In this document: in pieces, positions 21,001 to 24,000 of the stretch
Layout of the letters: every line of letters begins with the position of its first letter
Numbering within the stretch: position 1 is the stretch's first letter
Virus record (IMG/VR): IMGVR_UViG_2923302340_000007
Reading direction: 5' to 3' (one strand)
Length of the DNA stretch: 55,200 nucleotides
Source: a virus
Taxonomy: Duplodnaviria > Heunggongvirae > Uroviricota > Caudoviricetes
Made by a program: the position numbers

Positions 21001-24000
21001 TACAGCAGCCCTTCACTCTAAGGGGTTGCTGTAATGTGAGAAATAAAAAACCGGTCACAGGGAGCAGCTACACAGAACCGGCCGGCGAAGACCGCCAATA
21101 CCACCCATGCATTGATGCAACATACTAATGACAATAGATGGTATTGATGTAAATGCAATGTTATGCATCGACGAAAATAAAAAACCGGCAGGGGAAATCC
21201 AGTAAAGATTTGCCGGTGGCAAAAGATGGCCATGCTTTCAACCTTAGTCGCAGGGTTACGGAGTGCAACAATGAATGCCACAGGTATATGGCTGAATGGC
21301 GTTTCAATGATGCACGTCATCTTATCCTTAAATGTTAATTATAGGTGTTCTCATTTGTACGGGTCCTTCCGGAGAGGGGGATAACCACGGGGCGGAAGGC
21401 GCGCGGGTTTTCGCTATTTATGAAAATTTTCCGGGGAAAATCATGTCGGTACTTCTCGAACATAACTATTTGTTTTTTCTAATATCGAATCCGTAAAAGG
21501 TCCGACATGAAAACGCCTAAAAAAGTCATTTTCGGGCACTTTCATGTCGGCCCCTGTATTTATTGTGAGACTGTTTCATGAAGGTTAATAAAAAGAAACT
21601 TGCCGAAATTTTCAACGTGGATCCGCGAACGATTGAACGCTGGCAATCTCAGGGACTCCCTTGTGTCTCCGGAGGTGGTAAGGGCGTTGAATCTGTATTT
21701 GATACCGCCATGGCAATTCAGTGGTATGCGCAGAGGGAAGCTGATATCGAAAATGAAAAACTCCGTAAAGAGGTTGAGGGTTACAGGGCTGCCAGTGAGG
21801 CAGATCTCCAGCCTGGGACTATTGAGTACGAACGCCATCGACTTACGCGTGCGCAGGCCGACGCACAGGAGCTGAAGAATGCCAGAGACTCCGCAGAGGT
21901 GGTGGAAACCGCATTCTGTACTTTCGTGCTGTCACGGATCGCAGGTGAAATTGCCAGTATTCTTGACGGGATCCCTCTCTCGGTACAGCGGCGTTTTCCG
22001 GAACTGGAAAACCGACATGTTGATTTCCTGAAACGGGATATCATCAAAGCCATGAACAAAGCAGCCGCGCTGGATGAACTGATACCGGGGTTGCTGAGTG
22101 AATATATCGAACAGTCAGATTGATATTCTGCGGCGTGATGTACGCGCCGGGCTTCGTGCCCTGTTCAGGCCGGAGCCACAGACTGCCGTTGAATGGGCGG
22201 ATGCCAGTTACTATCTCCCGAAAGAATCCGCATACCAGGAAGGGCGCTGGGAAACACTGCCCTTTCAGCGGGCCATCATGAATGCGATGGGCAGCGACTA
22301 CATCCGTGAGGTGAATGTGGTGAAGTCTGCCCGTGTCGGTTATTCCAAAATGCTGCTGGGTGTTTATGCCTACTTCATAGAGCATAAGCAGCGCAACACC
22401 CTTATCTGGTTGCCGACGGATGGTGATGCCGAGAACTTTATGAAAACTCACGTTGAGCCGACCATCCGTGATATTCCTTCGCTGCTGGCGCTGGCCCCGT
22501 GGTATGGCAAAAAGCACCGGGATAACACGCTCACCATGAAGCGTTTCACCAATGGTCGTGGCTTCTGGTGCCTGGGCGGTAAAGCGGCAAAAAACTACCG
22601 TGAAAAGTCGGTGGATGTGGCGGGTTATGATGAACTTGCTGCCTTTGATGATGATATTGAACAGGAAGGCTCTCCGACGTTCCTGGGTGACAAGCGTATT
22701 GAAGGCTCGGTCTGGCCAAAGTCCATCCGTGGCTCCACGCCCAAAGTGAGAGGCACCTGTCAGATTGAGCGTGCAGCCAGTGAATCCCCGCATTTTATGC
22801 GTTTTCATGTTGCCTGCCCGCACTGCGGGGAGGAGCAGTACCTTAAATTTGGCGATAAAGAGACGCCGTTTGGCCTCAAATGGACGCCGGATGATCCCTC
22901 CAGCGTGTTTTATCTCTGCGAACATAATGCCTGCGTCATCCGCCAGCAGGAGCTGGACTTCACTGATGCCCGTTATATCTGCGAAAAGACCGGGATCTGG
23001 ACCCGTGATGGCATTCTCTGGTTTTCGTCATCCGGTGAAGAGATTGAGCCGCCGGACAGCGTGACCTTTCACATCTGGACGGCGTACAGCCCGTTCACCA
23101 CCTGGGTGCAGATTGTCAAAGACTGGATGAAAACGAAAGGGGATACGGGAAAACGTAAAACCTTCGTGAACACCACGCTCGGTGAGACATGGGAAGCGAA
23201 AATCGGTGAACGTCCGGATGCTGAAGTGATGGCAGAGCGGAAAGAGCATTATTCAGCGCCCGTTCCTGACCGTGTGGCTTACCTGACTGCCGGTATCGAC
23301 TCCCAGCTGGATCGCTACGAAATGCGCGTATGGGGATGGGGGCCGGGTGAGGAAAGCTGGCTGATTGACCGGCAGATTATTATGGGCCGCCACGATGATG
23401 AACAGACGCTGCTGCGTGTGGATGAGGCCATCAATAAAACCTATATCCGCCGGAATGGTGCAGAAATGTCGGTATCCCGTATCTGCTGGGATATTGGCGG
23501 GATTGACCCGACCATTGTGTATGAACGCTCGAAAAAGCATGGGCTGTTCCGGGTGATCCCTATTAAAGGGGCATCCGTCTACGGAAAGCCTGTGGCCAGC
23601 ATGCCACGTAAGCGAAACAAAAACGGGGTTTACCTTACCGAAATTGGTACGGATACCGCGAAAGAGCAGATTTATAACCGCTTCACACTGACGCCGGAAG
23701 GGGATGAACCGCTTCCCGGTGCCGTTCACTTCCCGAATAACCCGGATATTTTTGATCTGACCGAAGCGCAGCAGCTGACGGCTGAAGAGCAGGTCGAAAA
23801 ATGGGTGGATGGCAGGAAAAAAATACTGTGGGACAGCAAAAAGCGACGCAATGAGGCACTCGACTGCTTCGTTTATGCGCTGGCGGCGCTGCGCATCAGT
23901 ATTTCCCGCTGGCAGCTGGATCTCAGTGCGCTGCTGGCGAGCCTGCAGGAAGAAGATGGTGCAGCAACCAACAAGAAAACACTGGCAGATTACGCCCGTG

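Follow-up and report, generated by a model that had tools for sequence, protein, structure and literature searches.

A portable non-coding cassette with leftward terminator-like elements between the lysis and packaging modules of Escherichia coli lambdoid prophages

In the 55,200-nucleotide stretch of Caudoviricetes DNA analyzed here (IMG/VR record IMGVR_UViG_2923302340_000007; hereafter, the window), the region 170 to 390 bp to the left of cosN is occupied by a block consisting of hairpin 1, an optional module B, the terminator-like element T_A, and about 150 bp of module A. We found that this block forms a portable cassette, 200 or 335 bp long and non-coding, that separates the packaging module from the last gene of the lysis region in some E. 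coli lambdoid prophages. The A-rich motif that recurs in it is the positive-strand image of the U-tails of two leftward hairpin-plus-U-tract elements, which lie opposite the late operon. One of them, T_A, is a predicted factor-independent terminator with full anatomy, and no other part of the region is as well conserved. The features are as follows.

20998..21036, no strand assigned: hairpin 1, a stem-loop with a 13-17-bp stem; left edge of the conserved cassette
21041..21054, negative strand: A-rich repeat, copy 1 (AAATAAAAAACCGG); 3' stem end and U-tail (CCGGUUUUUUAUUU) of T_B
21041..21082, negative strand: T_B, a weak terminator-like element
21055..21188 (equivalently 21041-21174), no strand assigned: module B, a 134-bp indel segment between 14-nt direct repeats
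21174..21217, negative strand: T_A, a canonical intrinsic-terminator-like element
21175..21188, negative strand: A-rich repeat, copy 2; 3' stem end and U-tail of T_A
21189..21352, no strand assigned: module A, conserved and non-coding, from T_A to the cosQ-like GGGTCCT (21361-21367)
21217..21232, negative strand: mini-hairpin UGGC...GCCA, directly 5' of T_A
21241..21268, negative strand: sigma-70-like hexamers TTGCAC-16-TAAGGT (-10 at 21241-21246), conserved but weak
21338..21343, negative strand: TATAAT hexamer, preceded at 18 nt by AGGACC, which overlaps cosQ; score of 7.05, equal to background
21578-22123: Phage_Nu1 gene

The hairpins and the A-rich repeat

A first-pass annotation of this DNA had pointed to an A-rich motif recurring after 132 bp. 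The recurrence is real and consists of an exact 14-mer, AAATAAAAAACCGG, at 21041-21054 and 21175-21188, although the spacing is 134. The 14-mer occurs twice in the window versus 0.04 occurrences expected, and two or more occurrences were found in none of 100 shuffles.

The second inverted repeat mentioned in that annotation, CCGGCA...TGCCGG, is likewise present (21185-21190 and 21211-21216), and on the positive strand it comes after its own A-run. On the negative strand the same repeat makes up the outer stem of T_A (CCGGCA/UGCCGG), which is accompanied by an inner stem, AAAUC/GAUUU, with a CCCC bulge. T_A thus reads CCGGCAAAUC..GAUUUCCCCUGCCGG followed by the tail UUUUUUAUUUU (21174-21184), that is, a G+C-rich stem-loop directly before a U-rich tract, as in intrinsic terminators. 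The energy of the hairpin is -11.2 kcal/mol, and that of the negative-strand fold of T_A is -13.5 kcal/mol (z = -2.05). Terminators were scored with the d-score, the formula of which is reportedly that of d'Aubenton-Carafa and colleagues from 1990. T_A scored +12.7 on the negative strand, as opposed to a best positive-strand score of -59.5 nearby. None of 150 random windows scored above 0, and two control positive-strand terminators in the window scored +22 and +27.5.

T_A was identical in all 30 relatives fetched by a pattern that excludes it. Nucleotide diversity was also lowest at this element, with π of 0.01-0.03 versus 0.08-0.26 around it, in a sample retrieved independently of T_A. The sole substitution in the stem, GATTT to GACTT, pairs only in the negative-strand RNA, as G.U. 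A flank-anchored gapped pattern for T_A variants with an altered stem returned only known loci and chance matches. Because T_A hardly varies, it yields no covariation.

T_B is a weak second copy, often degenerate. It has the same U-tract as T_A, within UUUUUUAUUU, which follows a 6-7-bp stem (approximately 21050-21056 and 21076-21082) with a loop of 19 nt. The d-score of +3.0 on the negative strand is marginal and needs the adjacent GGCG/CGCC mini-hairpin at 21084-21096; the best positive-strand score is -74.5, and the z value of the fold is -0.4. In the commonest variant (GAAGCGG) the stem is broken, and the loop carries deletions of 3 nt and 8 nt among variants.

Hairpin 1 begins 5 nt downstream of the stop codon (20991-20993) of the phrog_1935 gene. 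The structure previously placed at 21003-21037 is real and stable, but those coordinates were off by 1-5 nt: the repeat search yielded two 14-nt arms, 20998-21011 and 21023-21036, with 93% complementarity and a gap of 11 nt. Folding of both strands, which had been proposed as a check, gave -26.8 kcal/mol (z = -5.6) for the positive-strand RNA, a value equaled by none of 200 shuffles, and -20.1 kcal/mol (z = -2.6) for the negative-strand RNA. The second proposed check, conservation, had a similar outcome, with the structures kept in related prophages and hairpin 1 found in all 139 related copies. Across 24 distinct variants its pairing was kept in 91.9% of cells, whereas slid controls retained only 37-53%. 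Four of its pairs were altered on both sides, a count of compensatory changes reached by 1 of 500 shuffles. A strand test based on the asymmetry between G.U and A.C showed no clear preference, with 316 paired cells for the positive strand and 322 for the negative strand, with the loop-closing pair excluded. Hairpin 1 was a terminator on neither strand (d-scores of -38 on the positive and -55 on the negative strand), and the positive-strand sequence 3' of it, GUGAGAAAUAAAAAA, has no U-run. We conclude that hairpin 1 is a stem-loop in its own right which, judging from its variants, is under selection for pairing.

Composition and distribution of the cassette

Members of the family were found in 242 of 5,426 E. 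coli genomes with an identity of 85-98%, or in about 4-5% of complete genomes. Several isolates of ETEC carry the cassette, as does the commensal strain SE11 (NC_011415, near 1,765,506-1,765,623), which has the long form; AR_0081 (NZ_CP027534, near 2,142,876-2,143,057) has the short form, and phiSTEC1575-Stx2k and phage cdtI are inducible phages with the cassette. Since all relatives are 85-98% identical, their conservation is in part due to recent common descent. The cassette lies at a mosaic junction and has many different neighbors on the left and on the right. Hairpin 1 is accompanied in some relatives by the final 11 codons of the phrog_1935 gene; in others (L007 and L015), the block starts exactly at hairpin 1, behind an unrelated gene with its own positive-strand terminator. 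On the right, the cassette stops before the cosQ-like heptamer GGGTCCT at 21361-21367, which directly adjoins it. As the first-pass annotation had stated, the region is upstream of cos: a lambda-like cos (GGGCGGAAGGCG-CGCGGGTTTTCGCTATTTATGAAAATTTTCCGG) begins near 21390, and the Phage_Nu1 gene follows.

Module B was present in 81 of the 139 related copies (long form) and absent from the other 58 (short form), and every hairpin 1 type and every cos type has both forms. In the alignment of relatives, the endpoints of the indel coincide exactly with the two 14-nt repeats. The repeat therefore marks where two similar terminator tails underwent deletion or unequal recombination. Module B was found in 125 E. 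coli genomes, and at least 80% of the block was found at one place in 125 as well, so that no genome with module B only was detected; no copy of module B was found outside this locus in the E. coli genomes. A scan of 185,579 species genomes with a 17-mer, which was a poor query choice, gave only chance-level matches to module B.

The possibility that module B is a mobile element derived from a MITE or an insertion sequence was rejected, no copies having been found at unrelated sites in these two genome sets. The repeat search reported no terminal inverted repeats of module B, and its flanks are the 14-nt direct repeat; the usual target-site duplications are much shorter than 14 nt. A common origin of the two modules by tandem duplication and later divergence was rejected as well. 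Their local alignment beyond the repeat scored 16, as opposed to a shuffle mean of 14.9, and 354 of 1,000 shuffles matched it.

Neither module has a conserved structure beyond T_A. RNAalifold, applied to both strands of modules A and B, found T_A and trivial helices and nothing else; the two strands fold about equally well, and long candidate stems were not kept across variants. Module A contains an invariant box, GGCGTTTCAATGAT, at 21298-21311. The mini-hairpin at 21217-21232 has an invariant 4-bp stem and a loop that varies in sequence and in length (indels of +1 and +2 nt). A scan of both strands for sigma-70 promoters found none that exceeds background. The hexamers TTGCAC-16-TAAGGT ranked first in 52 of 66 distinct variants; their scores of 5.5-7.9 lie within the background (best of 6.7 ± 2.1 per 470 nt) and are thus non-significant when taken alone. 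The relatives' versions of the TATAAT hexamer at 21338-21343 are TATCAT, TGTCAT, TATCAC, and TATCAA.

The cassette does not code for protein. In six-frame tracking of more than 30 variants, the reading frames were disrupted by indels (+1, +2, +2, and -1) and by stops. The pN/pS ratio ranged from 0.64 to 1.03 across the six frames, with purifying selection in none. One positive-strand frame (CN.EC..YMAEWRFND) seemed conserved at first sight; a negative-strand frame was equally so, and both are broken by frameshifts and stops. A search of the whole window against Rfam (release 15) at the gathering level returned nothing relevant, and a search of 20400-21700 at E ≤ 10 returned chance-level matches only (Hrs13 at E = 2.1 and miRNA models on the cosB palindrome). 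A literature search found no paper containing the cassette sequence, nor did expression data turn up for any strain that carries it.

A possible leftward transcription unit and its alternatives

Our leading, if tentative, reading is that the cassette may be a leftward non-coding "moron", a small transcription unit making an sRNA-like transcript that ends at T_A. The start point of RNA polymerase would fall in module A: from the TTGCAC-16-TAAGGT hexamers it would lie near 21235 and yield an RNA of about 60 nt composed of the mini-hairpin and T_A, whereas from AGGACC-18-TATAAT it would lie near 21330 and yield one of about 155 nt. Transcription would head leftward to the lysis genes, and the RNA would be released at T_A, whose stem and long U-tail resemble the 3' ends that Hfq typically binds. 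Any read-through past T_A in phages with the long form would reach T_B. Hairpin 1 may cap residual leftward read-through or, alternatively, stabilize the 3' end of the upstream positive-strand message. By sequence, the anatomy of an Hfq module is recognizable in the mini-hairpin at 21217-21232, followed by T_A and a U6AU4 tail with its run of at least six U residues. In favor of this reading are the strand asymmetry of the terminator scores, the constancy of T_A, the match between indel endpoints and repeat, the confinement of module B to this locus, the covariation in hairpin 1, the lack of coding potential, and the independence from cos, with PasB (see below) as a precedent; the promoter scores at background, the lack of an Rfam match, the shortage of conserved structure beyond T_A, the broken stem of T_B in its commonest variant, and the close relatedness of the copies count against it. 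A bolder proposal is that the cassette is an unannotated leftward gene for an Hfq-type sRNA, that the long form adds module B and T_B as a second optional RNA module, and that deletion at the 14-nt repeat switches lysogens between one and two modules; this is conceivable but doubtful.

Two other accounts of the region deserve weight. T_A and T_B could be orphan terminators, relics of a lost leftward moron in a cassette that is now silent, and would then persist because the cassette is young and offers, at its conserved ends, patches of homology for lambdoid module exchange. Such an origin would fit promoters that score only at background, modules A and B without a conserved fold, the visible decay of T_B, the location of the block at a mosaic junction with varied neighbors, and the narrow, little-diverged family. 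Decay would not be expected, however, to leave T_A far less variable than its surroundings, to produce compensatory changes in hairpin 1, or to keep the cassette intact across many recombination contexts, and on balance we consider the relic account unlikely. A role in the positive-strand late mRNA appears improbable. Here, hairpin 1 would be a 3' stabilizer, AGA-AAU-AAA-AAA would be a site for RNase E or an (ARN)n site for Hfq, and the rest would be a spacer in a Q-antiterminated transcript. Late transcription certainly covers this strand; hairpin 1, 5 nt past the phrog_1935 stop and accompanied in some relatives by the last 11 codons of that gene, is also more stable as positive-strand RNA. 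Yet the variants show no preference for pairing on that strand (316 versus 322 cells), the blocks of L007 and L015 follow an unrelated gene already equipped with a positive-strand terminator, and no role would remain for the hairpin-plus-T-run asymmetry conserved in T_A.

The first-pass interpretation was only partly borne out. Of the two functions it had offered, the first is contradicted by the sequence anatomy and the second is largely refuted. It is extremely unlikely that the hairpins are tandem intrinsic terminators of a positive-strand transcript after the last lysis-region gene: two hairpins are indeed found downstream of the last gene before cos, but neither stem is followed by a U-tract and the d-scores are -38, -59.5, and -74.5. 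Since the stems precede A-runs and not U-runs, there is no positive-strand terminator in the region. In lambda, moreover, late transcription is Q-antiterminated and must traverse this region to reach Nu1, which counts against terminators on that strand. With the terminator signal of T_A and T_B on the negative strand, any tandem terminators would stop transcription running leftward from the cos side, not that of the lysis genes. Binding sites for proteins near cos, at which terminase or IHF would assist packaging at the DNA level, are scarcely credible despite the distance of only 170-390 bp from cosN. The cassette accompanies a lambda-type cos with Nu1, a second cos type with a DUF1441 small terminase, and a third cos type, and four copies have no cos, with a ParB-like gene next and the small-terminase gene about 1.7 kb downstream of the cassette. 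Because at least three cos types adjoin it, and some copies have no cos, the cassette is not a cos accessory site. In addition, the changes in hairpin 1 are compensatory, so that a recognition sequence is not kept. A small protein gene is very unlikely. The candidates are a 61-aa open reading frame (ORF) on the positive strand (21153-21338) and a 100-aa ORF on the negative strand (21018-21320). In most variants of the long form a frame of 61-62 aa stays open, and the 61-aa ORF is annotated as hypothetical in phage phiSTEC1575-Stx2k (OQ243220) and in a few RefSeq genomes. Its start codon, however, is in module B, which is missing from half of the relatives; the remaining variants are frameshifted or contain stops, neither ORF matched Pfam or PHROG, the Shine-Dalgarno-like sequences are not conserved, and pN/pS is 0.64 or higher in every frame.

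Should the leftward RNA of the proposed moron be made, it would add a prophage-borne sRNA to a part of the map from which no such RNA has been reported, the known prophage sRNAs being located past PR' or among the tail genes. Its carriers would be mainly ETEC and commensal-type strains, and the natural presence/absence polymorphism of the second module could serve in functional tests. Should the cassette be untranscribed, it would present a clean case of similar terminator tails acting as micro-homology for deletion and module exchange at a mosaic junction, as well as a warning to consult the opposite strand when reading hairpin-plus-A-run motifs. Under either outcome, the cassette is neither a component of cos nor a new kind of system.

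Relation to known phage and prophage elements

The cassette resembles the accessory sites cosQ and cosB of lambda in its closeness to cosN and differs from them in that it is paired with several cos types or none. Lambda morons such as bor, a lipoprotein gene, are located between Rz and cos. The cassette occupies the map interval of bor, from the lysis genes to cos, and has in common with it a leftward orientation and a predicted terminator of its own beside the last rightward gene; unlike bor, which codes for a protein, it has no conserved ORF. Searches of the phage collection found no similarity of the cassette to lambda. The moron concept is that of Juhala et al. 2000, as cited in PMC4104026.

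Identity with a known prophage sRNA was considered and rejected. AgvB, AsxR, and PasA/C/D are found on the PR'/holin side and PasB between tail genes, and none is homologous to the cassette. The anti-sRNAs AgvB and AsxR (EcOnc01-03; Tree et al. 2014, PMC4104026; Rfam RF02702 and RF02703) are nevertheless similar in kind: they are unusually short prophage-borne sRNAs of 51-60 nt at a moron insertion site, comparable in length to the RNA of about 60 nt considered above, and combine variable 5' ends with a conserved terminator module at the 3' end. They differ in forming convergent pairs past PR', in the interval from Q to the lysis genes, and the RF02702 and RF02703 models gave no match in the cassette region.

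PasB is a Northern-validated, Hfq-dependent sRNA of prophage PP6 in EPEC E2348/69 (Pearl Mizrahi et al. 2021, PMC8550237) and is also treated in a preprint (Zhu et al. 2026, 10.64898/2026.05.13.724894). It has no blastn match in the window and lies between tail genes I and J, as opposed to the cassette's place between the lysis and packaging modules. The expression and Hfq dependence of PasB were demonstrated experimentally. The resemblance lies in the layout and the hosts: both are short intergenic elements in a lambdoid late region, on the strand opposite the late genes, with a hairpin and a long U-tail adjoining, in PasB, the stop codon of the upstream positive-strand gene, and both are typical of ETEC or commensal-type strains, not of EHEC.

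Position of the cassette in the prophage

The window is an E. coli-type lambdoid prophage, and the region examined here lies between a gene of unknown function and a lambda-like cos, whose cosN and cosQ we take to be such from the sequence of lambda.

19613-19996: M15 endolysin gene, which, like a small lipoprotein ORF, precedes the PHROG 1935 gene
20550-20993, + strand: gene of unknown function (PHROG 1935), left neighbor of the region
20998-21036: hairpin 1, with arms of 14 nt each (20998-21011 and 21023-21036; repeat search of the window)
21041-21082, - strand: terminator-like element T_B, a looser stem CCGGUU...GACCGG, then UUUUUUAUUUC
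21174-21217, - strand: terminator-like element T_A, CCGGCAAAUC-UUUAC-GGAUUU-CCCC-UGCCGG, then UUUUUUAUUUU
21217-21232: mini-hairpin UGGC...GCCA, directly preceding T_A on the - strand
21361-21367: cosQ-like GGGTCCT, right neighbor of the region, with GGGCGGAAGGCG at about 21390-21401, then CGCGGGTTTTCGCTATTTATGAAAATTTTCCGG
21578-22123: small terminase gene (Phage_Nu1, Pfam E = 4e-90), after cos
22098-24023: large terminase gene, after cos

Between cosN and the Nu1 start, an imperfect palindrome (21494-21558; 30-nt arms, 77% complementary, 5-nt spacer) gave weak, spurious matches to miRNA models and is presumably part of cosB, with terminase and IHF sites. On the other side of the region, a strong terminator-like hairpin with a T-run (20293-20318, + strand, 11 bp, d = +27.5) sits within a 60-aa lipoprotein-like ORF (20244-20426), in the stretch coding for the signal peptide and lipobox.

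The portal gene, of the lambda family (Pfam PF05136), is present as two ORFs, 24223-24954 and 24970-25824, which match profile positions 2-203 and 212-354; an essential head gene is interrupted here by a frameshift or a stop. Just after it are inserted two 100%-identical 2,700-bp IS66-family copies (25875-28574 and 29149-31848), inverted and 574 bp apart, each encoding a 523-aa DDE_Tnp_IS66 transposase and a 225-aa HTH protein; the prophage is probably defective. Elsewhere the prophage carries known prophage-associated small RNAs, all Rfam gathering-level matches, and two tRNA genes upstream of the holin/lysis cassette, placed as in many Stx-type lambdoid phages.

4409-4460, - strand: DicF
13076-13250, + strand: sok (CssrC)
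46496-46619, + strand: STnc490
17872-17947: tRNA-Met (CAT)
18045-18121: tRNA-Arg (TCT)

Hairpin 1 and the terminator-like elements

The hairpin, A-rich repeat and inverted repeat described in the first-pass annotation are all present, 1 to 5 nt from the positions it gave. The motif does recur, but at 134 bp rather than the interval first reported: the exact 14-mer AAATAAAAAACCGG begins at 21041 and 21175 and nowhere else in the window (two copies versus 0.04 expected by chance). The left arm of the inverted repeat CCGGCA (21185-21190)/TGCCGG (21211-21216) overlaps the second copy.

On the + strand, an A-run follows or precedes each stem, and therefore no structure there has the anatomy of a terminator. 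We scored candidates with d, the sum of hairpin energy and a T-tail score, a formula reportedly due to d'Aubenton-Carafa et al. in 1990. T_A and T_B scored +12.7 and +3.0 on the - strand, as opposed to -59.5 and -74.5 for the best + strand candidates in the same regions; hairpin 1 scored -38 on the + strand and -55 on the - strand. As controls, two clear + strand terminators from other parts of the window scored +22 and +27.5, and 0 of 150 random 76-nt windows scored above 0. Tandem terminators on the + strand, one of the functions first proposed, are contradicted by the anatomy. Both T_A and T_B have loops longer than 8 nt and were therefore missed by a simple terminator scan.

Folding of RNA from both strands of hairpin 1 gave stable structures, at -26.8 kcal/mol (z = -5.6) for the + strand and -20.1 (z = -2.6) for the - strand. 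The helix is kept in 24 distinct variants, with 91.9% of cells paired compared with 37-53% when the partner was slid by 1-3 columns. Two-sided pair changes numbered four, a count reached by 1 of 500 shuffles; they include C-G to A-U in four sequences, C-G to U-A and G-C to U-A. Judged from the alignment, these compensatory changes indicate that selection acts on nucleic-acid structure, and not on a sequence to be recognized by a protein.

A portable, non-coding cassette in two forms

The cassette (hairpin 1, the optional module B, T_A and module A) was found in 242 of 5,426 complete E. coli genomes, about 85 IMG/VR loci and 30 metagenome loci; among phages, only phiSTEC1575-Stx2k, phi458 and cdtI carried it. 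In the long form, hairpin 1 is followed by AAATAAAAAACCGG, 120 bp, AAATAAAAAACCGG and CAGGGG onward, and in the short form by AATAAAAAACCGG and CAGGGG onward; module B (134 bp, 21055-21188) is therefore missing exactly between the repeat copies. Conservation in related prophages was borne out by 139 copies with enough flank, 81 long and 58 short.

The count of E. coli genomes with module B, 125, equals that of genomes with at least 80% of the block in one place, and a 17-mer scan across genomes yielded chance matches only; we therefore rejected module B as a mobile element. Identical hairpin-1 variants are found in both forms, and every right-hand neighbor type occurs with both; the change has therefore either arisen more than once or been reshuffled by recombination. 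The two terminator tails are alike, and slippage between them, or unequal recombination, would be the simplest mechanism. Local comparison of modules A and B found no similarity beyond the repeat and CAGGG.

The cassette is portable and non-coding. Hairpin 1 forms the left limit of homology, and at least five different sequences lie upstream of it in the relatives; among them is an unrelated gene that has a + strand terminator of its own. In two IMG/VR loci (L026 and L053), all that is left of the phrog_1935 gene before hairpin 1 is its final 11 codons (MEIPEGAKITK*), which places a recombination junction within the 3' end of that gene, its tail traveling with hairpin 1. On the right, the block ends just short of the cosQ-like heptamer, and is followed by lambda-type cos with Nu1, by a second cos type with a DUF1441 small terminase, or by a third cos type. 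Four copies lack any cos, with a ParB-like gene next and a small-terminase gene about 1.7 kb downstream. This distribution, across at least three cos types and none, contradicts the alternative suggestion of cos-associated binding sites.

Across the variants examined, no reading frame was conserved. The start of the 61-aa + strand ORF falls in module B and so is absent from half of the relatives; in other variants, indels of +1, +2, +2 and -1 and early stop codons interrupt reading, and pN/pS was 0.64-1.03 in all six frames. Cassette ORFs had no match in Pfam or PHROG, and an Rfam search of the region returned nothing. The motif CAWTGATG (ATTGATGCAA, ATTGATGTAA, CAATGAATG, CAATGATGCA) has four copies across modules B and A (21111-21152 and 21268-21314), a recurrence that may be chance.

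A possible leftward RNA

The feature is real and conserved but ordinary. In a non-coding spacer, it combines terminator-like elements on the opposite strand with a hairpin that covaries and an indel bounded by repeats, and the prophage that carries it is a mosaic. Its most economical reading, we infer, is a small leftward transcription unit, a non-coding moron, whose RNA would arise in module A and be released at T_A. One candidate start, TTGCAC-16-TAAGGT (-10 at 21241-21246; hexamers conserved among relatives), would yield a transcript of about 60 nt comprising the mini-hairpin and T_A; another, in the window, AGGACC-18-TATAAT (-10 at 21338-21343), would lead to one of about 155 nt. The two candidates score at background level and we found no transcript data or literature on the cassette sequence, so the - strand RNA is a putative one.

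In the main rival reading, the terminators would be relics, and the cassette a linker for recombination. Among relatives retrieved by a pattern in the GGCGTTTCAATGAT box, independent of T_A, T_A was kept exactly in 30 of 30 real relatives, and nucleotide diversity was 0.01-0.03 at 21187-21225 versus 0.08-0.26 elsewhere in module A. The second rival has hairpin 1 and the A-rich tract acting in the + strand late mRNA. The wobble asymmetry of hairpin 1 does not tell which strand; the sole T_A stem substitution, GATTT to GACTT, can still pair (G.U) in - strand RNA but is mismatched (A.C) in that of the + strand. The +1 and +2 indels of the mini-hairpin fall in its loop. Outside T_A and the mini-hairpin, modules A and B showed no conserved fold, both strands folding about equally well. 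In one metagenome contig (ERZ1026901 NODE-1773), similarity to the family is lost immediately to the left of CGCAGAGTTACGG, some 80 nt to the left of the GGCGTTTCAATGAT box; the contig reads ...GGACTGAGTTATTGTCGTCTCATAT there and stops about 25 nt farther out, which could be an insertion or assembly break removing T_A.

In lambda, bor occupies the same position as the proposed non-coding moron. PasB, an experimentally validated Hfq-dependent sRNA of an EPEC prophage, is antisense to the late operon and maps between tail genes I and J (PMC8550237). The proposed cassette RNA would likewise lie opposite to the late operon in a prophage, but PasB has no homology to the cassette region. If the sRNA is made, the feature would be an addition to an already known kind.
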